Source of the DNA: a virus
Lineage: Duplodnaviria > Heunggongvirae > Uroviricota > Caudoviricetes
Length of the DNA stretch: 45,970 nucleotides
Virus record (IMG/VR): IMGVR_UViG_2778261461_000002
Location: 1 to 45,970 of that record
Strand: one strand, 5' to 3'
Part shown: positions 683 through 39,117 of the stretch, piece by piece
Layout: each line of letters starts with the position of its first letter
How positions within the stretch are numbered: the stretch's first letter is position 1
Program-made: the position numbers and the translations under genes
The notes under the pieces: generated by a model
What the model saw: the letters and a program-made list of their open reading frames with translations, nothing else
What the model was told of the DNA's origin: nothing
The model's database searches: none

Positions 683-3046
683 TCACCTGAACGAGATACG
701 CACGCGTTTGATGATTACATCGCCACCGAATGTGCTTGGTGATGCGTAGCCGAACTTAATCTTGGTGATCATCGAAGAGGACATGCCGGTGATCGTGTGG
801 GTATTAATATTCCCGACCTTATAACCGTCCTCAGTCCGCAGTCTGGCGATCTTGCTTGGAATATCGAGAGAGTGCCTGAACTTACAGACATTCCCTGCAA
901 CGAGCGGGTATGTGGCGCTAGATGTAAGGTCTGACGCTACACCGCCGCTGGACACTGTTCCCCTGGTCTGCAGGCTGGCGGTCACCTGATACAGGGCCCT
1001 GTCCCCGGTTGTTGCTTCACCGAGCGTTACGACATAGCACTGCCCTGACGGGCCGATGAAATCAATTTCTACGGAGATCCTTTCGAATGAGAGACCAGCT
1101 TCCATGAAATCAGCAGTATCGATATAAGCCCGGTTAGTGGCACCAAATTTCGCACCGATAACGTTGTTTTTAGCATCACGAACATACTCGATCGCGCCAT
1201 TGATAAACGTCAGCTTACCAAACAAGTTTGAAATTGCTGCTGATTTTGGGCTCAGGTGGTTGGAGACGTTTAATTTCCCACTGACAAAGTCAGCCACAAT
1301 GTCATAGCTTTTTTCTTTCCCGCCAGCACTGCCGAACCAGTAATCAACCGGAGCTGTATAAATCCGGGAACTGGCTTTCGCTGTCGGGTGATTAAGCCCA
1401 TTACCGCCATCCCCCTCGGTGTTATATACGTCATGATCGGTTAATACGGGAGCCATAGGAATTTCAGTTCCTGCAATCAAATCAACCCTCATCTGCCCGG
1501 ATCCTCCAATTGTAGGCGTGAAGAGGCCACCGAAGCGGATGATATTTCCTGAGAACACTGGGGTTGTATTATCTCCAATGAAAATCGTCAGAGAATCACC
1601 ATTCAACGAGAAGAAGATTTCCATATCGACAGCAGGCGCCGCGCCATCGGCAAACTGGTTAAGCGTAATCCCCACTGACGTTCCGGTGTACACCTGGACA
1701 TGCCATTTAGATAGCGCCATATCGTACGCAAGCGTAACGAAGTTATTCGTAGCCTGAGACAGTGAAAACTGAATGCCGGCAGTCATAACGGCAGGATCCG
1801 TCAGGACGAGCCTTGCCGAATAGCATGGCACCATATCAGTATACGAATAGGGTAAGTTCACCAGGACTGAGGTGGTTTTGCGAGCATAGCTGAACGCGCA
1901 CGGATCTACTCCATCACGCAGCGCTTTAAACCTCCGGTGCAGGTCTATAAAGCTGGCCCCGATGAATTTTGCATAAGAACGGGTCCAGCCAGCCATCGCG
2001 TCACGCCCGGATTGCTGATCAAAATCTGACGTTGCCGGGTTCCCTTTTGACGGAAGAATATTCGTACAGAAAATAATTTCAGGCTCGCTGCTGATGGTCC
2101 TGAGCTCATCCATCATTTTATAAAAGTTAGGCTGCTGGAAATTACCCGCGAGCCAGCCTGCACCGTCGTTCATCCCGAAAGCCAGGATCACTACATCAGG
2201 CTTGAGATCGTCAATATATGACATCCAGCGCTTTGAGGTGTTGTCATACCAGGGATAGCCACTGTTTGGTGTGCTGAAAACGGGTTCGTTTCTGCCTAAA
2301 TCGTAATATCGCATCCCACCGATAGCACGGTTAATAAATTCCGCAGTTGGGTTAATCTCCTGCACCTTTCTGCGAAGATAGGACTCAAACAGCGACGTGA
2401 TATTAGCTGTGTCAATATTATAGAAGCTGCTGAGGCTATCCCCGACCAGAACTACTTTCGCGCCATGGCGGCAGAGCTTGTTTTTGGCGGCCTCAGTTGC
2501 ATACCCAAATGACATTGGAGCAGGATCTGATGCCAGAATCTCACCCAAAGTCCTGTCAAATGGCGTACCGACCATAGTGGCACCGGTTGGCTTTGCCAAA
2601 TCGCTGCGTGCAGTTCCGTCACTCACATTGACCCATTTCCCTTTATCTACTCCGCCAGAAGTAGTCGGCGTAGAACCAGGAGGGACCACTTTAGGGAGTG
2701 CACCATCCCAGCGGTAATAATCACCATCGCCGTCTGGCAACTTCCAACGTAGTGCCTGATTAGTTAGGGTCAGCGTTTTACCATCCTGGAAGGAGTCCAT
2801 GGTGATGTAACCCACACCGGCAATGGCTTTCTTGCCATCTTCAATAAATTTATTAATTGCCGCTGATGCGATCCCCTCAAGACCGTACCAGGTACGCCGG
2901 GCGCGACCAAAGCGATCATGCCAGATAGCATCAGTAATGCTGTTGATGGCTGTATCAAAATTCTGGGAGTTATCGAAGAGGTCCTTCGGGTCGGTGGAGC
3001 CCAATGGTTTGTTTGTTCCGTAAATAGTCATGCTCGCTCCGGGCAT
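683..3046 (-). CDS. tail fibre/tailspike with central SGNH/GDSL hydrolase domain
   Basis: 787 aa; GDSL block VVLVGDSLSS and AFGMNDG block typical of SGNH esterases; position immediately downstream of the J-like gene; alternative start at 3031 (MTIYG). Confidence 0.7.
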   Translation of the reverse strand: MPGASMTIYGTNKPLGSTDPKDLFDNSQNFDTAINSITDAIWHDRFGRARRTWYGLEGIASAAINKFIEDGKKAIAGVGYITMDSFQDGKTLTLTNQALRWKLPDGDGDYYRWDGALPKVVPPGSTPTTSGGVDKGKWVNVSDGTARSDLAKPTGATMVGTPFDRTLGEILASDPAPMSFGYATEAAKNKLCRHGAKVVLVGDSLSSFYNIDTANITSLFESYLRRKVQEINPTAEFINRAIGGMRYYDLGRNEPVFSTPNSGYPWYDNTSKRWMSYIDDLKPDVVILAFGMNDGAGWLAGNFQQPNFYKMMDELRTISSEPEIIFCTNILPSKGNPATSDFDQQSGRDAMAGWTRSYAKFIGASFIDLHRRFKALRDGVDPCAFSYARKTTSVLVNLPYSYTDMVPCYSARLVLTDPAVMTAGIQFSLSQATNNFVTLAYDMALSKWHVQVYTGTSVGITLNQFADGAAPAVDMEIFFSLNGDSLTIFIGDNTTPVFSGNIIRFGGLFTPTIGGSGQMRVDLIAGTEIPMAPVLTDHDVYNTEGDGGNGLNHPTAKASSRIYTAPVDYWFGSAGGKEKSYDIVADFVSGKLNVSNHLSPKSAAISNLFGKLTFINGAIEYVRDAKNNVIGAKFGATNRAYIDTADFMEAGLSFERISVEIDFIGPSGQCYVVTLGEATTGDRALYQVTASLQTRGTVSSGGVASDLTSSATYPLVAGNVCKFRHSLDIPSKIARLRTEDGYKVGNINTHTITGMSSSMITKIKFGYASPSTFGGDVIIKRVRISFR

Positions 3047-3088: not shown

Positions 3089-6000
3089 TTAAGCGGCGTC
3101 GCCTGGGTATGTGGCGTCATCGTAGGCGTATTTGCCGGGGTGATACTGAATGGCTGTTACCTGGCTGATCCCATCGTTACCCGGTGATATTTCTCCGATC
3201 AGAGCGTCGTAAGGCACACGGACAGAAGAGCAGAACAGCAGGCGCGGCGGCTCAATATACGGGTCGTTCATCGCCCACAATTCTGGCTCCAGCGCGGCGC
3301 TATACGGCACCGAGATGGTGAAGTCGTCGATGCGTGTCGGCACTACCATTGCCGAAGCCCTGCCGTCCTGGTGGCGGATAATCACGCGAGGGCTCTGGAA
3401 TGACCAGTCAGGTGCCTCACTGAGCGTCATGGTGATTTTGCTGCTGTCATACTTCATATCGGTAATCAGGCAACTCAGCTGCTGATTGCCCGGTATATCG
3501 TCGGCCATTACAATCCGATCCATAAACTCGTAGCAGAGCGCATCCATTTCAGTTGATGTGGTGTGCTGCAGGCGCTGCAGCTGGTAGCCCAGCAACCGGC
3601 GCATGCCGATGCGGTAAGCCCGGTCTTCATTCAGAACACCATCCAGCGTGTAGCTCTCGATTTTCATGGGTGTAGGGTTTCCAGGCAGGCGACACTGCAC
3701 AGTTTCCTCTGCCCAGGTGGTGCCGTTGATATACGCCACGTCCACGCCATCGTAATCGTCCTGCGACGGGGCTTTAAACGCGGTCTGCAGCTCCTCGGTG
3801 GTTTCCTGCGGGGTGATCATGCCGACCCATGGTTTAATCCCTTCCCTGCCGGCAGACGCCAGCCCGTCAGACAGCAGAAAATATCCCATCCCCGCGTTGG
3901 TGATTTTCTGCAGCACCTCGAGCGCTGATTTACTCTCACCGCTCGCCCAGTCGAATTTCTCACCTCGGGGGGTCCAGTAGGTTTGCTCCAGCGCGTTAAT
4001 CGCCGCCGTGTCAATCTGGCTGGCGTTGAACCCCAGCGACTCAAGCACATGGTACAGCGCGCCGCTGATGCTCCGCGCCGTTCTGCCGCCGCTGTAAATC
4101 CGGGTTGGTGTAACGCTAATCCGGCGATCTGACATGGCCGCCAGGCGGTTCCCTGTGCGTACGGTCAGGGCCATGGTGGTGACACCATCGTACCTCGTGG
4201 GTCGCTTGCTCAGCCGGGAGCGCAGCGCCTGCCAGAAAACCTGGTCACGCGTGCTGCCACCCTTAACCGGTTCGGTGCGGCGCATCCGGATCTCATACTG
4301 TCCGGGAGAGACGCTGTAGCGATGCGTAAACCCGATCTGGTTTTCAGTGCTGCGTGAATAGAAAGGTGACTGCTGCTGCCAGGTAGTGGTCCCGACCTTC
4401 CGATACTGGATAACGAGGCGCACCGGCATGTCCCGTTTATTCCCTTTATCGGTGTAGCGCACTAACCCGCTCTGGAAGTTGATATTCACCTCAAATGCGT
4501 CCAGCGTTTCGCCGTCAGGGCACGCCAGGAACGGGCCGACCCATTCGTAATCGTCGCTGACACCTGTCACGGTGGCATCCAGCAGCGTGCGCTCTGTGAA
4601 ACCAGGCCACGATGGATCTGGCGTCGTAATGGTCTCACCCCCCGGGCCGGCGGTGACTGTAAGCCGCTCAACTGTGACCGTCTGGCTGTCCACATCGGTG
4701 ATCCGGAACTGATTGCCGGCCAGACCCAGCGAGAAGCGCTGAATGCCTTCCGGCAGTCCGGTAAACGGCGTGCCGGCGGCGCTGTTGTAGGCCAGAGTGA
4801 TGTGCGCCCTGACCTCCGCCGTGCCGCCAGTTGATTTCACGCCTGCCGTGTTAACCGGGGCATCACCGAACACAGCAACCGGTAACGGACTGTTAGTGAT
4901 GGACCCGCCGGCATAAGGGCTGCTGGCCTCGCCGATTTCAAGCCGCCCGCTGTTATCGCGCGCGACCAGGCCAGAACCAGAGAGCTGGGAGGTGATCGAG
5001 GAAATCAGGCCTGACATGGTGACGTAGTTGGTCACCAGCGATACCGGGTAAGTCGTGCCCTGCCAGCTGATGCTGAACGTTACAGGCGTGCTGCTGAAAT
5101 CGTAGGTCGTCGGCGCGGCGTTAGCGGTGATGCTGGCGGCGCTGCCGCCCACACCCGGCACCGGCGGCACGCCCGGGGCGTAGCTGGCGATAAACAGGTC
5201 ATAGTCATTGCCGTTATAGTTCAGGGATACCGGCATTCCGACCACTGGAGCCAACTCCTCCACCCCGCCATAAATCACGCTGTAACCGGCGGAAGACACG
5301 ACTGTATAAGAGTTTGGCGCCAGCACGGTGATGACCGTTCCGACAGTCCACGACGGCGGGATCTCCTCATCCCCAGACGACGATACGTCAACCAGCGTGA
5401 TGGAGTTTCCGGACACGACCAGCGCATCCGCGATAATACTGACCGTCTCCGGGCCGCTTGAGCCCAGGTCCAGACCGGCGGTGCCGGAGCCGGTATTCCC
5501 GACCTCTGGTGAGTTGAACCAGTTTTCGGTACGCGTGTCGCCGGATACGTCAGCGCCAGGTGGGAAGATTTTGTAACGGATATCAGTGCCAAATGAAGAA
5601 AATGGCGTATTCCCCACCTTCAGATCAGACTGGTTGATAGCCACGTCGCCGACGCATATGCACAGGAACATGCTTGTTTCCATGCTGGTCTCGTTGACGA
5701 AACGGCTTACCGGCTGCACGACGTAATCAGGCCAGACACGGTATTTTCCGAAGATTTCCCGGATGGGATCGCCGAGTTTCGCCGCGTTAGCTTTGGCCGG
5801 GTTGAGGTCAATCTGGTCGCCGCTGGCCGCCTGGGAACCGCCGCCGCCAGCTTGCGACATAGTACTCATCATGTAGATGCTGTACGCAGCAGAGGCGACA
5901 GCTACGCTGACGGCAACCCAGATCGCGATTTCTGCGCCGGTACCGTAGGGAACCGGATACATCCTGACGTCGGTTTCCCGCTTGATAACGCACAGTGGCC

Positions 6001-7059: not shown

Positions 7060-7514
7060 TCCTTGTTGAGCGCATAATCGATAATGCTCTGCCCGACGAT
7101 GAACTCAGGGAAATTACCCCAGCCAGGAGGCAGGATTGGGCGCTCCCATAGCTCCAGAGTTGCCGTGAATTTCCAGAACCCAAGCGCGTACAGTACCGGG
7201 CCGTTGTAGATATCTTTAAACCGGCAAACGTAATCACCGACACCCATTGGCGTACGCATGCGCATGTTGAACCACGCTGCGCCGTCAGTAATCACATCCC
7301 TGAACCACACCTCAAACAGCTGCGCCTGGGCATCGTTAAACACCCACGAAACCCCCGCCTCAGTCGGAACCGAGGTGTATTTGCGACGCTGGCGCGTGCG
7401 GCCGGATGTCATGGTGGAACGCTGGAGGGGGCTTACGGGAGTGAATCCATGCCCGGAACGCTGGGGCATTGGCAGGTACTGGTGCGGGAAATCAATGGTG
7501 CTGCTGATCCCCAT
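7044..7514 (-). CDS. minor tail protein (gpM-position)
   Basis: 156 aa; immediately downstream of tape measure gene. Confidence 0.45.
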   Translation of the reverse strand: MGISSTIDFPHQYLPMPQRSGHGFTPVSPLQRSTMTSGRTRQRRKYTSVPTEAGVSWVFNDAQAQLFEVWFRDVITDGAAWFNMRMRTPMGVGDYVCRFKDIYNGPVLYALGFWKFTATLELWERPILPPGWGNFPEFIVGQSIIDYALNKEWPEA

Positions 7515-7523
7515 GGGAACTCC

Positions 7524-10241
7524 TTATGTGAGGCGTTGAGTGGTGTTGAAATTGTTGGTCAGAGCGTTGGAGAGTTTGCCTTTTCCGCTGGCGACGTCGC
7601 TGACGGCCATGGAATATCCCTGCTGCGCCCCGCGCTTAACTGCTGCCTCCAGCATGGCAAGCTGCTGCTCTGTCGGGTCCCCGTTTACATGAATGACCGG
7701 GCTGTAATTGAACGCCCCACCACCACCGCCCATATCGCGGTTACTGATGACGCGACCGTTATCGCCGGGGATCATGTACTGGCTACCATTGCTGGCTTTG
7801 AAAATCTCAGGCTTGCCGCCTTCGCCCACACGGTACATGGAGCTGGCTGATACCGGGCCGCCGTTTTCGCGCCCGCCGCCATATGAGATGCTCGCAACGT
7901 TCGACAGCAATGACGCTCCAGCAGAGGCGATGGCTGCATAGTTCGCAAGTTTTTGCGCTGGAGTCAGCGCTGTCGGATCAGCCATGGCCTGCATGATTGC
8001 GGTATTCAGGCTGAGGGTAGACTGGGCAATCGCAAACGCTTTACTGGCTGCGAACATGACCTGGTACGCCGCGTTACTCTTGCCAGCGGAGTCAGCAATT
8101 ATCGAAGCCAGACTATCAAAACCCTGGGACGCAGAGCCCAGAATAGAAAGAACGGATGCTCTTTGCTGATCTGCCTCAGTCTGCGCTATTTGCATGCGTG
8201 CGTTTGACGCCTGCAGTTGGATGACAGTTTTGGCGTCTTCGTAAAGCTGGGTATTTTGCTTATCCAGTTCCTGATATTTAGCTATGGCCTCAAGCTTTTG
8301 TGTTTCCTGGAGATTGATTTGCGCCAGCGGATCCACTGATGCCCCAGTGATAGGGTTGACCGAGGTATTTCCGGCAGCTATCTCCTGTTTGGCATACTTC
8401 TGTCCCTGCTCAGCCTCTTTGCGTTTCTGAATAGAGATTGCAGCCTGTTCGTTTGCCTCCCCAAGCGCCCTCGCTTCCGACAGTTGCTGCTGGGTAGCCG
8501 CACTGCCGAGAGACTGCTCCGCACGAAGTCCCGCCTCCTGGATGCGGCGTTTTTCAACCGACTCGGTGGTCAGGTCTGATTGCTGCCTCAAATTATCAAG
8601 CTTTTGCGCCACCGTTTCTTGCTGATTGGCTAACTTCTTAGCTTCTGACGCAGCGCTACTGGCTCCCTTCTTGCTGTTAGCGTTAGCCTCATCCTGTTTA
8701 TAGGTTGCCAACTTGACGTTGTAGTATTTCCTGAATGCTTCCGTCCCCTCTTTCAGCCCCTGCGTTTCGGCATCTCGCCACGCCTTGGCTTTCATTTGAG
8801 CCTCGCCAGTTTGCCGCGCAATAAACAGCTCCTGCTGAGCGATTTTTAGCGCCTTATCCTGGCTGGAAGTCAGGCTATCAGTCATCTCTTTCAACGCTTT
8901 TAGGCGTGAAGTTGCATCAGTACTTGTCTCCATGATGGTTAAGAGACTTTTGGCATATTCCCTGGCTTTAGCCGCGCCAGAAGATTGCCCACTCCCAACA
9001 TCCTGCAGAGTTACAACCAATGACTTAAGTTTTTCGTCGGTTGGTGTTTTCGCAATGTCAGAGAGTTGCTTAGCAAACTCAAAGGCTTTCTGATCGCTAA
9101 TATCGAATTTGGTAGACAGGGCCGCAACAGTTGCCACCATAGAGTTCATCGTTGACTGACCATCCTGCCCGCTGGCAGCTGCCTGCTTCCATGCCTCACT
9201 GAAATCGTTAGTGGTTATATTTAGCGTGGACAAATAGTCATTAAATAATTTTACGCTGGCATATCCACCGCCAAGCGAAGACATCAATGAATCACCAAAG
9301 CTAATGAAGTCACTCGATGCCTTTTGTACTTCTTTTGAGACGTTTGATAGAGCGGCCTGCAATTCAAGCTCGGCCTGCTTTTTCATCAAGGTTGCTACAG
9401 CAATATTTGTCTGTGCCAGAGCGGCATATTTATCAGAGAGGGCAGCTACGCCATTTTGTGAAACTGTAATAACTTTATCCGTGGTTTCAATTGCGTCCTT
9501 AAGCGCCTCCATGGCGTTTTTACCGCCATTCAGAGACGTAATTAAAGCGCCAGCGATGACGGAGCTAATCGCAATCACCGATCCAAGTACCGCCCCACCT
9601 GGTCCGAACGCTCCCGCCAATTGCGAGCCCTGCTGAGAGAATGCAACTAGCGCAGATTGCCCACCCTGCACCTGAATGATGAAGTCCTGAACTTGGTATC
9701 CAGCCTGCTGCATACTGTTTTTCCAGTTGCCATGGCCTTTTGTGCCAGTATCACTGGCAGCCTTCATATCAAACAGGCGACCGGTTAGTTCACCGATTTT
9801 TTGCTTTTCTTCATCAGATGCTTTAGAACCAGCGCGAAGTTGAGCGGCAAGGATAGCGGCGCTACGTGCGCCGTTCTCCTGCGCCTCATCCAGTATCGCT
9901 AACTGGTTGCCAAGCCCCTCAATAATGGCCTCTGCCCGGCTAAACTCAGATCCCGCGCCACTGGTATTATTCTTGGCTTCCAGCATAGCCTTGGCGATTG
10001 CTGTTACGCTTGTGTTCAGGGTTTTGAGAGAGCTGTCCATCGAGCGGGAGTAGGCCGCCATGGCATCGATGGATTTACCGGTTTGCAGGGTGTTTTGGTC
10101 GAGGCTATCCAGAGTTTTGCTGGTTCCCTGGATCGTCCCTTCCATCATTTTCAGTGCAGCTACTACTTCTTTTGCCCCGTCCAGCATGGGCTGAACATCA
10201 GCATCAATCTGGATCTCTACTCCACCAACCTGTTCAGTCAT
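7524..10241 (-). CDS. tail tape measure protein
   Basis: 905 aa, long Ala/Gln/Glu/Lys-rich coiled-coil-like central region, Gly-rich C-terminus; position upstream of distal tail genes. Confidence 0.85.
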   Translation of the reverse strand: MTEQVGGVEIQIDADVQPMLDGAKEVVAALKMMEGTIQGTSKTLDSLDQNTLQTGKSIDAMAAYSRSMDSSLKTLNTSVTAIAKAMLEAKNNTSGAGSEFSRAEAIIEGLGNQLAILDEAQENGARSAAILAAQLRAGSKASDEEKQKIGELTGRLFDMKAASDTGTKGHGNWKNSMQQAGYQVQDFIIQVQGGQSALVAFSQQGSQLAGAFGPGGAVLGSVIAISSVIAGALITSLNGGKNAMEALKDAIETTDKVITVSQNGVAALSDKYAALAQTNIAVATLMKKQAELELQAALSNVSKEVQKASSDFISFGDSLMSSLGGGYASVKLFNDYLSTLNITTNDFSEAWKQAAASGQDGQSTMNSMVATVAALSTKFDISDQKAFEFAKQLSDIAKTPTDEKLKSLVVTLQDVGSGQSSGAAKAREYAKSLLTIMETSTDATSRLKALKEMTDSLTSSQDKALKIAQQELFIARQTGEAQMKAKAWRDAETQGLKEGTEAFRKYYNVKLATYKQDEANANSKKGASSAASEAKKLANQQETVAQKLDNLRQQSDLTTESVEKRRIQEAGLRAEQSLGSAATQQQLSEARALGEANEQAAISIQKRKEAEQGQKYAKQEIAAGNTSVNPITGASVDPLAQINLQETQKLEAIAKYQELDKQNTQLYEDAKTVIQLQASNARMQIAQTEADQQRASVLSILGSASQGFDSLASIIADSAGKSNAAYQVMFAASKAFAIAQSTLSLNTAIMQAMADPTALTPAQKLANYAAIASAGASLLSNVASISYGGGRENGGPVSASSMYRVGEGGKPEIFKASNGSQYMIPGDNGRVISNRDMGGGGGAFNYSPVIHVNGDPTEQQLAMLEAAVKRGAQQGYSMAVSDVASGKGKLSNALTNNFNTTQRLT

Positions 10242-29509: not shown

Positions 29510-29951
29510 TGCGATCACCCCACTGCTTGGCCCACTCAATTTCGAGGCGGGACTTGTCGCTGAATTTGACGTTCTGCTGTGTGCCGAACCAGTAGATAGC
29601 CTCGATGACCTCTACCATCTGGCGCACCGTCATCTTGCTGGTACGTTGACCGAACATCACAATGCCGCCATCCAGACCGGGAGCCATTCGTTGCTCCTGC
29701 TTCTTGGACTTGGCGACCATCGCGGTTATCAAATCTTTCCAGTCGTCTGAGTCGTATTTGCTGCCGAACCAGAGAACCTGATCGGAGAGGTCTTTTAAAA
29801 GCGGCCATAATTTACGATTCTGCTGAGCAGTGCGCGTCATCTCTTTGATGTCTAGAATCAGCGGGCGCTTAGCGTCGACCGGCAGCTCACGGATGTAGTT
29901 GATGGCGTTCTGCTTTACGGATTCGTTTACGAGGTGGAATTGTTGCTTCAT
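29502..29951 (-). CDS. ninB: NinB (Orf-family recombination mediator)
   Basis: QNRKLW, KFSD and LEIEWAKQWGDR blocks match lambda NinB; start at internal Met 29951. Confidence 0.8.
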   Translation of the reverse strand: MKQQFHLVNESVKQNAINYIRELPVDAKRPLILDIKEMTRTAQQNRKLWPLLKDLSDQVLWFGSKYDSDDWKDLITAMVAKSKKQEQRMAPGLDGGIVMFGQRTSKMTVRQMVEVIEAIYWFGTQQNVKFSDKSRLEIEWAKQWGDRNA

Positions 29952-33207: not shown

Positions 33208-34643
33208 CAGAACCCCCCTTTCTTTTTCGGCTGCTGCTCACGCCCGCGGCGTTCTGCGGCGGCGGCCTGCTGGTCTGTGTCGTAAATTGACCCGTTGTTC
33301 TGATTGCAATAAACCGTTCCGGTACTGCCGTGGCGGTTGAGTCTCAGGATTAACTCGGTTTCTCCCGGCGGCACGCTGTCATCGAAAGCACCTTCCCGGT
33401 GGATGCCAACCCAGTAGTCGCAGTCCTGTTCAATCTGTCCTGTGTCCCGGGAATCGCTCGGCAACGGGCGTTTATTCACTCGCTTCTCCAGTTCGCGGTT
33501 GAGCTGGGTCAGCAGCACGACGACGCAGCCAAGCTCTTTGGCGAGATTCTTCAGACCTTTGGTGATCATCCCGTAGGCCAGGTCATTACGGTCGGCTTTT
33601 TCGGCGGTCATTAGAGTCAGGTAGTCAACCAGAATCATTCCTACGCAGCCCTTCTCGCGCTTGATTCGGCGGCTTTCGCTAACGATGTGCGCCAGTGACA
33701 GGCCAGGAGTATCGTCGATGTACAGCATGTCGATTTCACTCAATCGCCCGGCGGTGGCGATCGCCTTCTTAAAGTCGCCGTCGTAATCGCCCTGGTACTG
33801 GTCATCGGCGTCATCCGTGGCTGGCATGTAAAAAATGCTCGGGTTAACTCCAGACTTCTGACCAACCAGTTTTTCGAGGATCTGGTCGCCCGGCATTTCG
33901 AGGCTGAACATCAGCGCTGGCTTTTTCTCACGAACCGCGCAGTTGATCGCCATCTGACCGTACAGGGTTGTCTTGCCCATCTTTGGCCTTGCGCCAATCA
34001 CGAACAGAGAGCCTTTAACCAGACCTTTCGGCGCCAGCAGCCTGTCGAGTGAAGGTATGCCGGTACTCATGCCGCGCTGTTCGCCTGAAGGGTCAAACCG
34101 TTTCTCCAGATCTGCTACCCAGTCATCCATAACCTCGCCAAACGATCTCAACCCACGGCGACTACCGGTTTTTGAATGGTCTGCGAGCTGGGTGAAAATA
34201 CCCTGAATGGCCTCGTACTTCTGCGTAGCGCTCATGCCGTTACGGGAATACAGCAGCTCAGTAGCTTCGGTCAGGCGGTTGATACCGTAGCGCTCCATTG
34301 CGGCTTCCCGGACTGATGCTGCGTAAGCTACGATGTTTGCAGCGCTGGGAGTGTTCTTGGCGATCTCCGCAAGGTAAGCAAAGCCACCCACCTGCTCAGC
34401 GAGCCCTTTGCCTTCGAGCGCGTCGAACAATGTCAGACCATCGACTGGCTTGTTGTCGCGGAACATCTGGCGCATCTCGGCAAAGATCAGCTGGTGAGGT
34501 CGGCTGTAGAACGACTCAGGCTTGAGCATCGCCAGAACCTTCTGGACTCGCTCGCTGTTGTCATCATCCAGCAGCAGGCCACCGATAACGCTCTGCTCTG
34601 CTTCGAGGTTTTGTGGTACAGCCATGAAATCAGCGGTCATCAC
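33207..34643 (-). CDS. DnaB-family replicative helicase
   Basis: 478 aa; Walker A GARPKMGKT, N-terminal DnaB-like domain (LEAEQSVIGGLLLD); replaces lambda P position. Confidence 0.85.
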   Translation of the reverse strand: MMTADFMAVPQNLEAEQSVIGGLLLDDDNSERVQKVLAMLKPESFYSRPHQLIFAEMRQMFRDNKPVDGLTLFDALEGKGLAEQVGGFAYLAEIAKNTPSAANIVAYAASVREAAMERYGINRLTEATELLYSRNGMSATQKYEAIQGIFTQLADHSKTGSRRGLRSFGEVMDDWVADLEKRFDPSGEQRGMSTGIPSLDRLLAPKGLVKGSLFVIGARPKMGKTTLYGQMAINCAVREKKPALMFSLEMPGDQILEKLVGQKSGVNPSIFYMPATDDADDQYQGDYDGDFKKAIATAGRLSEIDMLYIDDTPGLSLAHIVSESRRIKREKGCVGMILVDYLTLMTAEKADRNDLAYGMITKGLKNLAKELGCVVVLLTQLNRELEKRVNKRPLPSDSRDTGQIEQDCDYWVGIHREGAFDDSVPPGETELILRLNRHGSTGTVYCNQNNGSIYDTDQQAAAAERRGREQQPKKKGGF

Positions 34644-35535
34644 GATCCCCTTCGCGCACTTCGATGTAGAGCTTTTCGGTCAGGAACTTATCGAATTTCA
34701 TGCGGCGCCAGGTCTTCCCGGATTTCTGGTCTGGTCGGTCTTCAAGCATCCAGCGGCAGTTCTGAGCGATGTAGCGCAGATAGCTTCTGAAACCGTCCAT
34801 ATCCATCGGCTTGCCGTCCAGGTTGCGGGCAATTTTGTTAGCCTTACCCCAGAAGGTGCGGATCAGATTGCGTCGCTCATCAGTGAGGCATCTCCATCCC
34901 CGGGCTTCAGGCAGTTCGTCTTTCAGGCATTGCCATACTTCATCGCATGACAAACGGGACTTTTTCTCTTCAGCGGGTTTCTGGTCATTTGCGACATACT
35001 TACTACCGTTAGGTAGTAAGTTATTTAATATATTGTTATCTGTGGACACTGGCTGGACATCGGCTGGACACTCCGCCTCCGCAGGCATTGATATAGCTGC
35101 GTTTGCGCTGGACACTGGCTGGACATCGGCTGGACAAAAATTTGACTGATATTCGTCATATTTGACCACTTTTAGAACAGTAAAACGGTTGTTCGATTTG
35201 GTGGTGATCATGCCCAGGTTCTGGAATTTACGGAGCAGTGATTTAACGCGATCAGCGGTCAAACCCGTTTCCATTGCCAGCGTGTTTCGCCCGGTAATGA
35301 ACTCTCCGCGCTCGCAGATCACATCGCCGACATCAGTCGATACCAGTGTCTGTTCATGATTAGCGCGCAGGAGCAGGTGAACCCATAAATGAGCCGCCTC
35401 AGCGTCCTTGTAGAACGGCACATCCATAATTTTACGGTGCAGCAAGGCAAACCCCTTACCGTCATTCGTGCGCGGTTTCTGGAGCCTTCTGGCCTCTCTG
35501 GCTTCGGCTAAATTGGATACGTTACCCACGGCCAC
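34630..35535 (-). CDS. replication initiator (lambda O-like organiser) containing internal ori iterons
   Basis: 301 aa; HTH-like N-terminus; repeated peptide CPADVQPVS encoded by DNA iterons; position upstream of helicase. Confidence 0.65.
   Translation of the reverse strand: MAVGNVSNLAEAREARRLQKPRTNDGKGFALLHRKIMDVPFYKDAEAAHLWVHLLLRANHEQTLVSTDVGDVICERGEFITGRNTLAMETGLTADRVKSLLRKFQNLGMITTKSNNRFTVLKVVKYDEYQSNFCPADVQPVSSANAAISMPAEAECPADVQPVSTDNNILNNLLPNGSKYVANDQKPAEEKKSRLSCDEVWQCLKDELPEARGWRCLTDERRNLIRTFWGKANKIARNLDGKPMDMDGFRSYLRYIAQNCRWMLEDRPDQKSGKTWRRMKFDKFLTEKLYIEVREGDRDDR
35021..35136. repeat. ori-like iteron array with AT-rich flank
   Basis: 28-bp direct repeat tggacactggctggacatcggctggaca at about 35043-35070 and 35109-35136, each made of three (c)tggaca sub-repeats, preceded by an AT-rich stretch. 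Confidence 0.6.
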
Positions 35536-36317: not shown

Positions 36318-36551
36318 TTAGGCCGCAGTATCACGCGGCGATGCGAATACCAGGCTTTCTTTTAGGACCGGAGCCTGGCGGTGAAAATTCTTCGTGCCTT
36401 TCTCGATAGCAGATGCCATTTCTGGAGATGCCCGGCGATTTCCGTAGGCGATCTGGTCCAGGTAACCTGGCGTCGTGTTAGCCAACTTTGCGAGCTGCGC
36501 CCATTCGTCGGTAGTGGCGGCCTTGCGCCAGCGGTGTAGTTCAGTGCTCAT
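36318..36551 (-). CDS. cro: Cro-like repressor (HTH)
   Basis: 77 aa; divergent from CI across an operator-containing intergenic region. Confidence 0.6.
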   Translation of the reverse strand: MSTELHRWRKAATTDEWAQLAKLANTTPGYLDQIAYGNRRASPEMASAIEKGTKNFHRQAPVLKESLVFASPRDTAA

Positions 36552-36583
36552 TGGTGTCTCCGGGTGAGTCGTTTGATTTGGAG

Positions 36584-36649
36584 TTTAGCGTTATGCTAAA
36601 TACTACGCAAGCATCATTTAGCAATTTGCACATTTATCATTTTGCTAAA
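36584..36649. promoter_or_regulatory. OR-like operator cluster (TTTAGC-N5-GCTAAA sites) with divergent promoters
   Basis: perfect palindrome TTTAGCGTTATGCTAAA at about 36584-36600 plus two degenerate copies; lies between cro-like start (36551) and cI ATG (36668). Confidence 0.55.
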
Positions 36650-36667
36650 AGCAGTAACAATGCAGGT

Positions 36668-37345
36668 ATGGAAAATAAAGAAATCAGAAAAGCCAACCTG
36701 GAAGCGCTGTACGAGAAGCGTCAGCACGAGTCTGGAATGACCAAAGCGCAGTTTGCCGAGCTCATCGAGACAAGTCCGGCTGCGCTTAGCCAGCTACTGG
36801 GACCAAACCCTCATCGCAATATCGGCGATAAGATGGCTCGCAAAATTGAAACTGCGCTTGATCTGCCTTTTGGCTGGATGGATGTTTTACACGCCAGTGA
36901 AGAACCTTCGAACGTTGCATTTCGAGGACTGAACGAGACAAAAGGAAGTTATCCTGTAATCAGCTGGGTAAGCGCGGGGCAATGGATGGAAGCTGTAGAA
37001 CCTTATCACCGAAGAGCGATAGATCGCTGGTATGACACGACTGTTGACTGCTCAGAAGATTCATTCTGGCTGGACGTTAAAGGGGATTCTATGACCTCCC
37101 CGGCTGGACTAAGCATACCCGAGGGAGCAGCGATACTTGTTGATCCTGAAGTCGAGCCGCGCAACGGAAAGCTGGTTGTCGCGAAGCTAGAAGGCGATAA
37201 CGAAGCGACCTTTAAGAAGCTTGTAATCGATGCCGGCAGACGCTTCCTAAAGCCCCTTAACCCCGCATATCCAATGCTAGAAATTAATGGAAACTGCAAA
37301 ATCATCGGCGTTGTGGTTGATGCCAAAATACTAAACATCCCATAA
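36668..37345 (+). CDS. cI: CI-type prophage repressor (HTH + LexA-like S24 autopeptidase domain)
   Basis: C-terminal VKGDSM Ser motif and Lys in ATFKKL; N-terminal HTH; ORF track starts at TTG 36551 but ATG 36668 (MENKEIRK) avoids the operator region. Confidence 0.85.
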   Translation: MENKEIRKANLEALYEKRQHESGMTKAQFAELIETSPAALSQLLGPNPHRNIGDKMARKIETALDLPFGWMDVLHASEEPSNVAFRGLNETKGSYPVISWVSAGQWMEAVEPYHRRAIDRWYDTTVDCSEDSFWLDVKGDSMTSPAGLSIPEGAAILVDPEVEPRNGKLVVAKLEGDNEATFKKLVIDAGRRFLKPLNPAYPMLEINGNCKIIGVVVDAKILNIP

Positions 37346-37365
37346 CCTCACGCAAAACCCCTCAA

Positions 37366-37389
37366 GCCCGCCATCGCGCGGGCTTTTTT
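37366..37389 (+). terminator. rho-independent terminator after cI
   Basis: hairpin gcccgc-catcgc-gcgggc followed by T6. Confidence 0.55.
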
Positions 37390-37503: not shown

Positions 37504-37803
37504 TTTACCCCATCGAAACGAAACATCGACAGCTGAGCGAAGTTAGCCAGCGGCGGACAGCAAGTCGCCTGCTCATTAAGAATTCAGTCAAGCAGCAAAT
37601 CACCCGGAGCGCTCCTGGCAAATTGAAATGGCGCCCAATGGGATTGAGGCAGGTGTGTAACGCGTGGCGGGTATAGCACACGAAGAGGACTCCGCACCGG
37701 AATGGTTTGCTGCTCAGTTCCCGAACATCGGGGAAGCTTTACCAGCAGCTCTTTGCGAGGGGCTGACGGCAAATCTACTCCACTTATTTAAAAGAGACGG
37801 TAT

Positions 37804-37977
37804 ATGGATAATCAGGATAATGAGTTAAGAAAGGTTGTTCAGGAACTTGCTGATGAAGAAGGCATCAGCTTTTCCGATGCCCTAGATGTTTCGATTAAAG
37901 CGCTGCGTTATGAGGTAGAGCGCAGAAAATCGTTTAACGGTGAAGCTGCTTGTGATGGCTCTGCAATTACTTCTTAG
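37804..37977 (+). CDS. small acidic ORF (57 aa), first ORF of the pL-like transcript
   Basis: ATG verified; below the ORF-track size cutoff; not Arg-rich, so not an obvious lambda N analogue. Confidence 0.3.
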   Translation: MDNQDNELRKVVQELADEEGISFSDALDVSIKALRYEVERRKSFNGEAACDGSAITS

Positions 37978-38245
37978 CCAAGTACCAAGAGGTGTCTGCG
38001 GCTTCGGAAACCAGTACGTAATAGCTTTGCTTTACACTACTAGCTATACCTCTGACTTCCTCTCTAACGTTATATGCAGTTGATGTTTTTACGGTTGTAT
38101 ATTCAGCTGTTGGGAGGTTAAACCAAGTGCCATTACCATCCTGTATCTCACGCGAATAACCCTTTGCTTTCATCTTTTCATGAAGATTTTCATAGTCTTC
38201 AGAATCAGCGCCGCGCAACTCAACTCGAACAATATATCTTGCCAT
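37967..38245 (-). CDS. hypothetical protein (92 aa from internal Met), convergent with pL-like operon
   Basis: ATG at 38245 with AGGAA Shine-Dalgarno; ORF-track N-terminal extension would be encoded across a terminator hairpin and is unlikely. Confidence 0.45.
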   Translation of the reverse strand: MARYIVRVELRGADSEDYENLHEKMKAKGYSREIQDGNGTWFNLPTAEYTTVKTSTAYNVREEVRGIASSVKQSYYVLVSEAADTSWYLAKK

Positions 38246-38359
38246 AAGAAGATTCCTATATTGACTGTGGAATGAGCAACATATCAGTTTCCTTTGACTG
38301 TGGAAAGCAAAGGGACACGGGCCGGGCGTGGATAAAAATCCCGGCACCAACCATCGCAA

Positions 38360-38383
38360 AGCCGCCACCTGAGCGGCTTTTTT
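38360..38383 (+). terminator. rho-independent terminator (tL-like) on plus strand
   Basis: hairpin agccgc-cacctga-gcggct followed by T6. Confidence 0.5.
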
Positions 38384-38516
38384 CATACCTAAGAAACTTC
38401 GCAGAGGTTTCTAAGTTATGAGACGGCGGCCATCCACCGCCCATTGAAACACTGAATAAATGCGTTGAAGTCTTGTATTAACCGTTCCGTTCGCCGCGAT
38501 AAGGCCAAGAGGATTT

Positions 38517-38756
38517 ATGAGCAACAAAACTGGAGGGCGCGCTTTCCCGTGTGATTCTATCGTGGAGCGCGACGAAGTTGGTCACTTACATGGTTTCGAA
38601 GTCAGCTCTGGCGGCATGACCCTACGCGATTACTTCGCGGCCAAGGCTATGCAGGGTCGATTAGCCAATCCTGACTGGTTGTGTAGCGATGACCGCACGG
38701 CAACCGAAGCGTACCAGATAGCTGACGCAATGCTCCGCGCCCGGGAGGCCTCATGA
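38517..38756 (+). CDS. hypothetical early protein (79 aa)
   Basis: ORF track; ATG verified at 38517; first of a chain of overlapping early genes. Confidence 0.4.
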   Translation: MSNKTGGRAFPCDSIVERDEVGHLHGFEVSSGGMTLRDYFAAKAMQGRLANPDWLCSDDRTATEAYQIADAMLRAREAS

Positions 38757-38908
38757 CAGTCACCCACAACGGCAAGCAGTACACCGCTAAAAAGCTCAAC
38801 GATAACGAGTGGCAGCTGACATCAGTATCGGCACCGCGCGACAAGCTGACACTGAACCGCTGGCAGATGCATGTTGCTGGCCTCCTGAAACAGGTTAAGG
38901 TGAAGGTA
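38753..38908 (+). CDS. small coupled ORF (51 aa), missed by ORF track
   Basis: ATGA overlaps at both ends with flanking genes. Confidence 0.3.
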
Positions 38909-39117
38909 TGATGCACCACTACGGCACCACCCCGCTCATTCGCCAGTGCGTCACTCCTGGCATGATGGCAATGCATGAAGGCCGCACCTATCGAGTCTCA
39001 GCAGTCATTCAAGAGCGCAAATGGGTATACCTGCACACCGATGCAGAAATCATCCGCCTCAGTGACTGCGTGATTGACGTTCTTCTGGACGGTCACGGCA
39101 ACCCTATCCAGCACTAA
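38908..39117 (+). CDS. hypothetical early protein (69 aa)
   Basis: ORF track. Confidence 0.3.
   Translation: MMHHYGTTPLIRQCVTPGMMAMHEGRTYRVSAVIQERKWVYLHTDAEIIRLSDCVIDVLLDGHGNPIQH

Follow-up and report, generated by a model that had tools for sequence, protein, structure and literature searches.

The 92-aa open reading frame (ORF) on the minus strand of the window, by which we mean the whole 45,970-bp stretch of viral DNA analyzed here, is on comparative grounds a real accessory gene ("moron"), lying antisense in the early-left operon in the position and orientation that sieB takes in lambda and P22. It is also predicted to have a sigma-70 promoter of its own, homologous to the sieB promoter. 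Taken together, the evidence makes it rather likely that this is a sieB-slot antisense moron with its own sieB-type promoter, silenced by pL transcription and encoding a product that acts on RNA. The gene is probably expressed in the lysogen, and a role in exclusion is plausible. A small, unannotated-looking ORF can in this way be placed in a defined class, the lysogen-type accessory genes of the sieB slot, with a concrete predicted promoter, leader, and terminator (Table 1).

In the scenario that we favor, transcription would be directed by a −35 hexamer TTTCCA at the 5′ end of repeat copy 1, followed by a 17-bp spacer, the extended −10 TGaTATGTT, and 6 nt leading to a start at copy 2. The resulting transcript, of about 0.4 kb, probably terminates at a hairpin and U-rich tract that lie within the convergent 57-aa ORF. 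The gene would be expressed while cI represses pL. After induction or superinfection, antiterminated pL transcription would traverse it, and silencing may then come about by collision, promoter occlusion, or antisense pairing, like that of P22 sas on sieB. The product, with its predicted GhoS/Cas2 fold, would most likely bind or cut RNA, and may serve exclusion, defence, or the control of phage transcripts.

Table 1. Features of the locus, in window coordinates.
Feature	Position	Strand	Basis
pL-leader stem-loop	37738..37773	+	megablast match under the HK639 "putL-like antiterminator RNA," alignment, fold
57-aa acidic ORF	37804..37977	+	ORF list; first ORF of the early-left transcript
Terminator-like hairpin, 92-aa transcript	37852..37881	−	inside the 57-aa ORF (codons GISFSDA)
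92-aa YmfI-like small protein, predicted GhoS/Cas2 fold (MARYIVRVELRGADSEDYENLHEKM...)	37967..38245	−	ORF list and family matches
Predicted 5′ UTR	38246..38272	−	copy 2 (38261-38272) at or adjoining the start at ~38271; SD AGGAAU at 38252-38257
Predicted extended −10, TGaTATGTT	38278..38286	−	hexamer 38278-38283, TG 38285-38286
Repeat copy 1 with predicted −35 hexamer TTTCCA (38301-38306)	38294..38306	−	copy 1 is 38294-38305; hexamer at its 5′ end
Two-helix conserved upstream element	38316..38345	−	covariation in 32 class-I cassettes
Plus-strand (pL-direction) intrinsic terminator	38360..38383	+	AGCCGC/GCGGCT stem and T-run; homologous to phi80 tL1A

The Locus and the sieB Slot

A cI-like gene at 36551-37345 (+) and operators, together with a pL leader that the window shares with phi80 and HK639, confirm that plus-strand early-left transcription enters the region. 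The stem-loop of this leader is nearly identical to stem II of the HK639 element, and the terminator beyond the 92-aa gene has its annotated counterpart in the rho-independent tL1A of phi80. The geometry predicted by the first-pass annotation, with the pL transcript passing the 57-aa ORF, running antisense through the 92-aa gene, and then reaching a plus-strand terminator, was borne out. The 92-aa gene itself begins at an internal ATG of a program-called 139-aa ORF and converges with the 57-aa ORF, the 3′ ends overlapping by 11 bp. The 57-aa ORF, which has no family match in Pfam, PHROG, NCBIfam, or PADLOC, recurs at more than 20 loci in the same convergent position with 50-100% identity. The minus-strand hairpin within it reads GGCAUC-N9-GAUGCC followed by UUCUUCAUC (ΔG −14.1 kcal/mol, z −2.85 on folding) and is kept across loci with one compensatory change, GGCATT..AATGCC, in locus L092; its 9-nt loop kept the terminator scan from calling it.

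The sieB locus and the sieB promoter of phages P22 and lambda were reportedly described by Ranade and Poteete in 1993. In the lambda annotation (NC_001416), sieB (34482-35036, +) and N (35037-35438, −) point toward each other and their 3′ ends abut, and in that of P22 (NC_002371) a gap of 20 bp separates the 3′ ends of sieB and gene 24; like sieB in these two phages, the 92-aa gene is the first after the pL-proximal gene, convergent with it, and abutting or overlapping at the 3′ end. The DNA upstream of the 92-aa gene also aligns with both sieB promoter regions. The likeness that had been drawn to the lambda rexAB/sieB locus accordingly stands for sieB, by convergence and upstream homology, and falls for rexAB, which lies between cI and pL. 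The cargo differs, since SieB has 184-192 aa in the lambda and P22 records and the 92-aa product is a predicted soluble GhoS-fold protein; nor is an esc-type internal start evident in the 92-aa gene.

The same layout is found in the e14 prophage of E. coli K-12, where ymfK, ymfJ, and ymfI provide a repressor, pL, a first small ORF (ymfJ), and then a convergent overlapping ymfI (b1143), the ymfI-ymfJ pair being listed among convergent overlapping transcripts (PMC12288877). The window has this YmfI-type synteny, with its gene convergent to the first ORF of the pL operon and beside a cI-like repressor. On the other hand, e14 has a single-unit (type-2) cassette in place of the twin repeats of the window, and its YmfJ is unrelated to the 57-aa ORF.

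Prophage morons are accessory genes that bring a promoter and a terminator of their own; many lie antisense to lytic genes and are active in the lysogen. The 92-aa unit resembles them in being a self-contained, predicted promoter-gene-terminator set antisense to the surrounding operon, whereas, unlike in typical morons, its promoter comes together with the leader and the upstream element as one conserved cassette, which about 11 unrelated cargo families share. Cassette genes are as a rule placed antisense: in a crude nearest-long-ORF count, 47 cases had both neighbors on the opposite strand, as against 3 with both on the same strand. cI-like genes lie downstream and kil-region genes upstream, on the opposite strand in either case. 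An antisense position has been described as characteristic of accessory loci (PMC7067206).

The Cassette, Its Promoter and the Twin Repeats

The cassette is roughly 110 bp long. At least 119 viral contigs carry it, and the small genes that follow it belong to about 11 unrelated families; we found no description in the searchable literature of its being shared by unrelated cargo. All 94 distinct cassettes have a TAnnnT that precedes copy 2 by exactly 6 nt, the −10 hexamer taking 21 different forms in which T1, A2, and T6 are always kept; TG is found at −15/−14 in 71, and the spacer from TTTCCA to the −10 measures 17 bp in 86. The −10 of the window aligns with the TAAACT −10 inside the annotated P22 sieB promoter. 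As the P22 annotation sets the start of sieB RNA at the first base of the second ACCCCTACAG, the start at ~38271 was transferred to the window by homology, and copy 2 would therefore be the first ~11 nt of a leader of ~27 nt. For the SopEPhi cassette of SL1344, the corresponding predicted start falls about 7 nt past TATTCT, close to position 944 of locus L264. The −35 TTTCCA is weak (4 of 6 positions match), and a generic promoter scan with a threshold of 9 of 12 did not list the window promoter. A second promoter just 5′ of helix A (described below), suggested by TATAAT or GATAAT in some loci, was set aside as inconsistent among them, and so was an upstream leader peptide (from the ATG in TATGTT, MLLIPQSI), which is not conserved and lies upstream of the predicted transcript start. 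Within the leader, the UUCC near the 5′ end is able to base-pair with GGAA in the Shine-Dalgarno sequence; the resulting AUUCC/GGAAU stem has U-A and U.G variants and is weak and thermodynamically marginal (about −2.6 kcal/mol).

The window cassette and the sieB regions of P22 and lambda are alike in their two-helix element, weak −35, TAnnnT −10, short leader, and twin direct repeats 33-35 bp apart, and differ in the repeat itself, which is TTCCACAGTCAA in the window and ACCCCTACAG, twice, in P22 and lambda. The lambda and P22 sieB promoter region would thus be one version of a conserved cassette that appears to drive, in Enterobacterales prophages, about 11 unrelated, uncharacterized small proteins. 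Since it fronts so many families, the sieB-type cassette offers a search handle for accessory or exclusion genes expressed in lysogens, one that reaches unannotated genes as well, such as those of SopEPhi and Edno5.

Two exact repeats about 33 bp apart had been noticed upstream of the 92-aa gene, and TTGACTGTGGAA is indeed present exactly twice, at 38261-38272 and 38294-38305 on the plus strand, with a start-to-start spacing of 33 and no further exact copy in the 45,970-bp window. By our own estimate, about 0.1 exact 12-mer pairs within 50 bp are expected in a window of this size, which makes the pair marginally unlikely, and its significance comes from its conservation across cassettes. The period is 33 bp in 90 of the 94 distinct cassettes, and the pair recurs in phage contigs of Enterobacter, Proteus, Photorhabdus, Yersinia, and Serratia. 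It could still be argued that the repeat arose by chance and that no functional gene is present in the ORF, given that one such pair is not very improbable in 46 kb and that the promoter scan came back empty. The comparative data contradict this, since the protein is conserved across phyla, the repeats with their spacing are conserved over the viral contigs counted above, and the region is homologous to a mapped promoter, so that we give the idea practically no credence.

What the repeats do is a separate matter. The proposal that they are −35 elements held in part, as copy 1 carries the TTTCCA −35 on the strand of the gene, whereas a plus-strand −35, TTGACT, is not followed by a conserved −10. 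A reading of them as sites for a regulator specific to the 92-aa gene did not survive, because the same repeats, as part of the cassette, stand in front of about 11 cargo families that are unrelated to one another; this also rules out that the 92-aa protein regulates its own gene. A broader form of the idea is that a single sequence-specific regulator uses both copies as operators, one in the −35 region and the other at +1, and so represses or times the promoter; this factor would be common to all cassette carriers or co-vary with the repeat subtype. These are typical repressor positions, and the 33-bp period is close to three helical turns. Both copies are nearly invariant, while the DNA between them varies, and the same change is found in both copies at once, namely GACAA in HK225, L110, L011, and L092 and GTCGA in L115. 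Against it, the repeat differs by subtype (TTCCACAGTCAA, ACCCCTACAG, TCCCCAACAACAA, and TCCCCAATAGT) despite a shared upstream element, which argues against a fixed host factor; the unrelated cargo excludes the product itself; and a third copy is absent from the window. Compared by eye, sites for LexA, CRP, IHF, sigma-E, sigma-54, and RcsAB do not fit the repeats. At the start codon, 13 of 14 positions match the RcsAB consensus, a match that other loci do not preserve. The motif resembles the DnaA box TTWTNCACA, but from one subtype to the next the repeat takes on an entirely different sequence. A literature search for the repeat sequence returned nothing relevant. On balance we regard such an operator pair as rather unlikely.

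As to their origin, the repeats are, on the alignment of the leader units, what is left of a tandem duplication. Unit 1 (X-AGGAAAC-TGAT-ATG-TT) can be aligned with unit 2 (X-..AGGAAT-CTTCTT-ATG-GC), and also with the single unit of the e14 ymfI and SopEPhi cassettes; the −10 hexamer would therefore be homologous to a former start-codon region.

Upstream Helices and the Question of an Antisense RNA

The element upstream of the promoter comprises helix A (GCCGGG/CCCGGC, 38321-38345) and helix B (CACG/CGUG, 38316-38330), the latter weak in the window. The two overlap and are mutually exclusive, and each is about 92% paired with compensatory changes across the 32 class-I cassettes, a covariation that none of 500 shuffles reached. 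An H-type pseudoknot is ruled out by a connecting loop of just 0-3 nt, and we therefore treat the two as alternatives. The element also stands upstream of lambda and P22 sieB, e14 ymfI, and a SopEPhi ORF. By minimum free energy the sense strand is only 0.9 kcal/mol better in the helix region, and the automated stem picker was noisy. The identity of the two repeat copies, the role of these covarying helices, and an inverted repeat that spans the transcript start all lie outside what the sieB-slot moron reading covers.

This inverted repeat is found in type-2, P22, and lambda cassettes, where it begins within the −10 hexamer and has the transcript start between its arms, with the compensatory pairs TGCTGG/CCAGCA, TACTGG/CCAGTA, TTCTTGG/CCAAGAA, CCTCT/AGAGG, ACTCT/AGAGT, and AAACT/AGTTT. 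As it begins inside the −10, it cannot form in the sense mRNA. This is one reason to consider that the conserved structures belong to a plus-strand antisense RNA like that of P22, which makes a 105-nt cis-antisense RNA, sas, against sieB (PMC12197685; PMC7067206). Such an RNA would reach across the leader and the beginning of the gene and stop at either the helices or the terminator. The repeats would determine its pairing or its specificity, in keeping with their subtype-specific sequences, and the resident gene could then be turned off by a phage that carries the same type of cassette. A plus-strand terminator indeed follows the cassette in most loci, and 38307-38383 (+) gave a weak match to the IsrK sRNA (RF01394) made up of two hairpins and a terminator, the terminator hairpin being that of Table 1.

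Several observations weigh against it. A conserved plus-strand promoter was not found, as the hexamers 17 bp downstream of TTGACT are neither −10-like nor conserved and nothing fits in the TAGACT class. Helix A, with 20 U.G and 3 U-A at one pair, and the U.G variants of the leader stem favor the sense strand. In type-1 cassettes, pairing of the −10 with sequence after copy 2 amounted to 4.98 pairs vs. 5.00 in shuffles, and was dropped. The IsrK match scored 21.3 bits against a gathering score of 50 (E 0.14) and was likewise rejected, its context being unrelated to that of the real IsrK, which precedes orf45-anrP in Gifsy-1 (PMC4825925). We therefore consider a sas-like origin of these structures decidedly unlikely.

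Family and Fold of the 92-aa Protein

The protein matches Pfam GhoS (PF11080) marginally above the gathering score (22.7 bits vs. 21, E 9.8e-5), PHROG 8894 strongly (E 1e-32), and the NCBIfam equivalog YmfI_phage (NF051477) at E 3e-16, its 59.6 bits falling below the cut-off of 140. A family profile aligned with e14 YmfI over 90 columns at 89% probability (hhalign), whereas BLASTP of the two proteins gave no significant similarity, and we take the 92-aa protein on these profile matches to be a distant relative of e14 YmfI and no equivalog. The family comprises 26 database clusters, with homologues 30-100% identical that span phyla, and 22 aligned sequences have 19 invariant columns, in which E9, H22, R32, E48, K53, and E63 are found. 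A fully identical (100%) protein is encoded on contig CAXYPO010000002.1 of Enterobacter bugandensis 22S01078-8. Structure prediction, which the first-pass annotation had called for, gave an AlphaFold2 model (pLDDT 94.9) with a GhoS/Cas2-like ferredoxin fold. The top Foldseek match was GhoS (2LLZ; E 9e-5, TM 0.70, rmsd 2.4 Å), the sole PDB fold match with E < 0.001, with Cas2 chains next; a PDB sequence search with the family profile gave no match.

The predicted protein has in common with GhoS (YjdK) and Cas2 the ferredoxin-like beta-alpha-beta-beta-alpha-beta fold, and with GhoS an acidic residue at the end of strand 1, invariant E9 standing opposite GhoS D15 in the hhalign alignment. It differs from GhoS in sequence (14-18% identity), in having no ghoT partner or operon, and in its context, which is prophages and defence islands for the one and a chromosomal toxin-antitoxin locus for the other. 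In the same alignment the invariant H22 takes the place of GhoS R28, which has been reported as the most important residue of GhoS (PMC4010927). A literature search for GhoS-like prophage proteins returned nothing relevant.

These matches raise the question of whether the protein is a true type V antitoxin, cleaving the mRNA of a toxic neighbor, such as kil or the 57-aa ORF, and thereby silencing it in the lysogen. Besides the Pfam score and the fold match, several homologues are named GhoS by NCBI, a homologue of Kil is encoded 660 bp farther down the pL transcript, and the 57-aa ORF has been found only beside GhoS-like cargo. The ORF is, however, missing from 25 of the 34 GhoS-like loci, the residue most important in GhoS is replaced by the invariant His, and no GhoT-like small membrane ORF follows the gene on the minus strand in the ORF list, the convergent 57-aa ORF being found there instead. 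Unrelated cargo in the same cassette and slot moreover means that a kil-specific partnership is not needed, and we judge this reading highly improbable.

A bolder proposal is that the sieB-type cassette is more than a promoter, namely a portable two-way regulatory module, and its GhoS-fold cargo a new abortive-infection or exclusion RNase. The helices and the inverted repeat would then be part of a sas-like antisense RNA or an RNA switch, the repeats, subtype-specific yet identical within a subtype, would act as specificity determinants, and a phage of the same subtype would silence the resident copy, which would amount to an immunity group for accessory genes. The cargo would be related to a chromosomal module of a DndB- or DUF262-like gene and a GhoS-like gene. 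We regard this as a long shot. GhoS-fold proteins in prophage exclusion slots and defence islands would widen the roles of the fold beyond type V toxin-antitoxin systems. The 92-aa protein itself had no match in PADLOC-DB v2 at E up to 0.1. In favor of the sieB-slot moron reading, its distant homologues, which are only 36-51% identical and come from other phyla, adjoin DndB-like genes, a CBASS cyclase with a Cap15 effector, a ResIII helicase, and a ThiF/E1 gene with DUF6527, the defence models matching these neighbors only.

Early-left transcription and the convergent gene

A lambdoid prophage immunity region, with AT-rich operator-like repeats and a cI-like gene, lies in the window, and the first ~90 nt of its leader are common to phi80 and HK639, in which they lie downstream of the annotated pL (early-left promoter). 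Given the cI-like gene, the operator-like repeats and this shared leader, plus-strand early-left transcription enters the region of the 92-aa gene. The 57-aa ORF, the 92-aa ORF, the repeat pair and the plus-strand terminator described by the first-pass annotation were all recovered, and its proposed geometry, in which the pL transcript passes the 57-aa ORF, runs antisense through the 92-aa gene and reaches the terminator, proved right; the 3′ ends of the two ORFs share 11 bp.

Features of the immunity region and the early-left transcript in the window
Feature	Position	Strand	Basis
cI-like gene, S24/HTH	36551-37345	+	ORF and domain match
Intrinsic terminator	37364-37385		terminator scan
57-aa acidic ORF	37804-37977	+	ORF call
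92-aa ORF	37967-38245	-	ORF call
Transcript start (predicted)	near 38271	-	cassette comparison
-10 hexamer (predicted)	38278-38283	-	cassette comparison
TG of extended -10 (predicted)	38285-38286	-	cassette comparison
-35 hexamer (predicted)	38301-38306	-	cassette comparison
Terminator, homologue of phi80 tL1A (annotated rho-independent)	38360-38383	+	sequence comparison
Kil homologue	38908-39117	+	PHROG 294

No N-like gene follows the pL leader in the window (37510-37800, plus strand), and judging from its sequence the prophage may use RNA-based (put-type) antitermination. Window positions 37738-37773 (plus strand) are nearly identical to stem II of the HK639 annotated "putL-like antiterminator RNA." Further on, 38517-39117 (plus strand) holds ORFs of 79 aa (PHROG 2201) and 52 aa (PHROG 6396) and the Kil homologue. 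The terminator and the next ~140 bp (38362-38520) are ~90% identical to phi80 and HK225, which places a mosaic junction at the very edge of the cassette, the ~110-bp conserved promoter region of the 92-aa gene.

The locus had been equated with that of lambda rexAB/sieB, and the likeness stands for sieB. In lambda, sieB (34482-35036, plus strand) is convergent with N (35037-35438, minus strand), their ends abutting, P22 sieB is convergent with gene 24 in the same arrangement, and in e14 ymfK (cI-like) is followed by ymfJ and ymfI, the last convergent and overlapping. However, it fails for rexAB, which lies on the opposite side of lambda pL from sieB. Among relatives of the window, a small convergent ORF always faces the 3′ end of the 92-aa gene homologue, belonging either to the 57-aa family or to a second family starting MKFE.L, and an N-like protein with an arginine-rich motif is often encoded upstream of it. 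The 92-aa gene locus is a sieB-slot antisense moron, with an uncharacterised GhoS-fold cargo and several conserved regulatory features.

The 92-aa ORF is a genuine gene, and its product has a GhoS/Cas2-like predicted fold. The protein matches PHROG 8894 (E 1e-32) and has relatives in 26 clusters of a large protein database (51-99% identity), and a 22-sequence alignment of the family contains 19 invariant columns, among them E9, H22, R32, E48, K53, E63, and W87. Its Pfam GhoS match is only just above the cut-off (22.7 against 21 bits), its match to the NCBIfam "YmfI family phage protein" lies far under the equivalog cut-off, and a PADLOC search with it gave no match; the family profile aligns e14 YmfI over 90 columns with 89% probability. 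Structure prediction, which the first-pass annotation had proposed, yielded a confident beta-alpha-beta-beta-alpha-beta AlphaFold2 model (pLDDT 94.9), for which GhoS (2LLZ) was the sole PDB match with E <0.001 (TM 0.70, 14% identity), Cas2 chains ranking after it. Comparison of the profiles sets GhoS D15 opposite E9 and R28 opposite H22, and GhoS activity is reported to depend on R28 more than on any other residue (PMC4010927). Because of this replacement, and because no GhoT-like ORF was found downstream of the gene among the window ORFs, we call the protein GhoS-fold and not a GhoS antitoxin.

A portable promoter cassette

TTGACTGTGGAA occurs as two exact copies in the window, at 38294-38305 (copy 1) and 38261-38272 (copy 2, nearer the gene), with no zero-mismatch copies elsewhere. 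The ~100 bp upstream of the 92-aa gene are more conserved than the protein itself, and at Proteus, Photorhabdus, Yersinia, and Serratia loci, where protein identity is no more than 38-50%, both repeats and their spacing are kept. A viral contig scan with the pattern TCCACAGTCAA-N18-26-TCCACAGTCAA found at least 119 loci, and among the scan matches listed only 34 of 112 downstream ORFs are GhoS-like, the remainder falling into ~11 unrelated families of small proteins, all functionally uncharacterised; the "ECs_2282 family putative zinc-binding protein" is one cargo family behind the cassette. Since the downstream ORFs are so diverse, autoregulation by the cargo product is ruled out. Few complete E. 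coli genomes (16 of 5426) contain the twin-repeat cassette.

Among 94 distinct cassettes, a biased sample in that 80 were taken from the exact-match scan, the 33-bp repeat period is kept in 90, and all 94 have a TAnnnT hexamer exactly 6 nt before copy 2, in 21 different versions with T1, A2, and T6 constant throughout. The hexamer is preceded by TG in 71, and in 86 a 17-bp spacer separates it from TTTCCA, the 5′ end of copy 1, on the upstream side. The same geometry was found in 34 cassettes reached via the protein and not via the repeat scan. As the critical positions are invariant while the others vary freely, we infer a sigma-70 extended -10 promoter on the gene strand.

The upstream element TGTGCCTGTCTTTTAACCACaTCAGGCTCGGTGGTT is also present upstream of lambda and P22 sieB, followed by direct repeats ACCCCTACAG that are 34 bp apart and flank TAAACT. 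In the P22 record the sieB promoter is annotated at 29690-29720, with TAAACT at its end, and the "sieB RNA start site" at 29727, which is base 1 of the second repeat and nt 7 after the -10. The cassettes of the window, HK225, P22, lambda, e14, and SopEPhi can be aligned over the upstream element and the -10, and by alignment with the annotated P22 promoter the -35 is predicted to lie in copy 1 and the RNA to start at copy 2. Of the earlier reading of the repeats as regulator sites or -35 elements, a gene-specific operator is discounted by the sharing of the cassette, the -35 is retained for copy 1 on the minus strand, and copy 2 is reassigned to the predicted transcript start.

Unit 1 (X-AGGAAAC-TGAT-ATG-TT) can be aligned with unit 2 (X-..AGGAAT-CTTCTT-ATG-GC) and also matches the leader unit present once in the e14 and SopEPhi cassettes, where the start codon coincides in the alignment with the ATG inside the window TATGTT. 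By these alignments, twin-repeat cassettes are tandem duplications of the leader unit, the upstream copy of which became the promoter.

Conserved pairing in and around the cassette

Repeats that follow one class of upstream element are of subtype TTCCACAGTCAA, ACCCCTACAG, TCCCCAACAACAA or TCCCCAATAGT, yet the two copies agree within each cassette, and in some lineages both have changed in parallel. A fixed host factor fails to explain this identity, as the repeats differ by subtype; it could instead stem from separate duplication events, each copy being under strong constraint, from a co-varying binder, or from an RNA partner.

Two upstream helices are each ~92% paired with compensatory changes, the observed covariation being reached by 0 of 500 shuffles, and they have nucleotides in common and are thus mutually exclusive. 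Their U.G pairs favour the sense strand; nevertheless, they lie upstream of the mapped start. In the single-unit (type-2), P22, and lambda cassettes, an inverted repeat with compensatory pair changes begins within the -10 and encloses the transcript start. It is impossible for this repeat to form in the sense mRNA, and it may instead form part of an antisense RNA like P22 sas, which is 105 nt long and directed against sieB (PMC12197685, PMC7067206). Equivalent pairing in the window's twin-repeat (type-1) cassette was no better than chance, and a leader stem UUCC:GGAA over the SD is weak.

On the minus strand, ~90 nt beyond the 92-aa stop codon, GGCAUC-N9-GAUGCC is followed by UUCUUCAUC (37881-37852; folding energy -14.1 kcal/mol, z -2.85), with no U-tract after the hairpin in the pL direction. 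This hairpin probably ends the transcript of the 92-aa gene. It falls in codons GISFSDA of the 57-aa ORF and is kept wherever this ORF occurs, including a compensatory change (ATC-to-ATT with GAT-to-AAT) in locus L092. The 57-aa ORF is found only with GhoS-like cargo, an exclusive pairing for which the hairpin may account.

Placement of the cassettes and possible function

Most cassettes are antisense islands. By a rough tally of nearest ORFs (110 aa or longer), the two flanking ORFs are both opposite in strand in 47 cases and both on the same strand in 3, and dozens of loci have, on the opposite strand, cI-like genes downstream and kil-region genes upstream. The HK225 cassette is flanked by Q/tR′ and the holin gene and runs antisense to the late operon; in Stx phages this slot harbours the Shiga toxin genes. 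HK225_067 (JQ086371, locus positions 1760-2309) is a 136-aa hypothetical protein with a coiled coil and a zinc ribbon (PHROG 1244), behind a twin-repeat cassette of the TTCCACAGACAA variant.

In SopEPhi and Edno5, cassettes precede ORFs without annotation in their records. The SopEPhi ORF (AY319521, locus positions 898-1247, plus strand of the locus; 91 aa, MKNNEQQNEALKQL...) lies antisense between fil-like and cII-like genes, preceded by a single-unit cassette and followed by a terminator-like hairpin. In Edno5 (MH898687, locus positions ~1806-1960) a twin-repeat cassette stands ahead of a zinc-finger-like ORF (MDSTVVVNVFCPNCGSKL...). This ORF is read from the other strand than the annotated genes, one of which, Edno5_0050, it overlaps. 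Two further contigs contain the scan 11-mer TCCACAGTCAA in repeat arrays of another kind, one of head-to-tail TCCGCAGTCAA and TCCACAGTCAA units (IMGVR_UViG_3300035501_000556, ~5580-5760) and one of three iteron-like ~36-bp repeats with TCCACAGTCAA (IMGVR_UViG_3300030231_000074, ~7510-7700, reverse strand), and neither array resembles the promoter cassette.

Distant chromosomal homologues of the 92-aa protein (36-51% identity) occur in defence-type neighbourhoods, immediately 3′ of DndB-like or DGLQR-motif genes. One (L043) adjoins a CBASS cyclase and a Cap15 2TM effector, another (L020) a ResIII/DEAD helicase, and a third (L009) has a ThiF/E1 gene with DUF6527 upstream. Based on these neighbourhoods and the sieB slot, a role in exclusion, defence or RNA targeting would be the best guess for the 92-aa product, albeit a tentative one that we think somewhat improbable. 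The genomes with distant homologues (L043, L025, L024, L020, L009) are from Acidobacteriota and others, and in L025 and L024 the homologue is followed by one and the same pair of uncharacterised genes (209 and 252 aa). Together with the DndB-/DGLQR-type gene and the homologue, these look like a conserved four-gene module.
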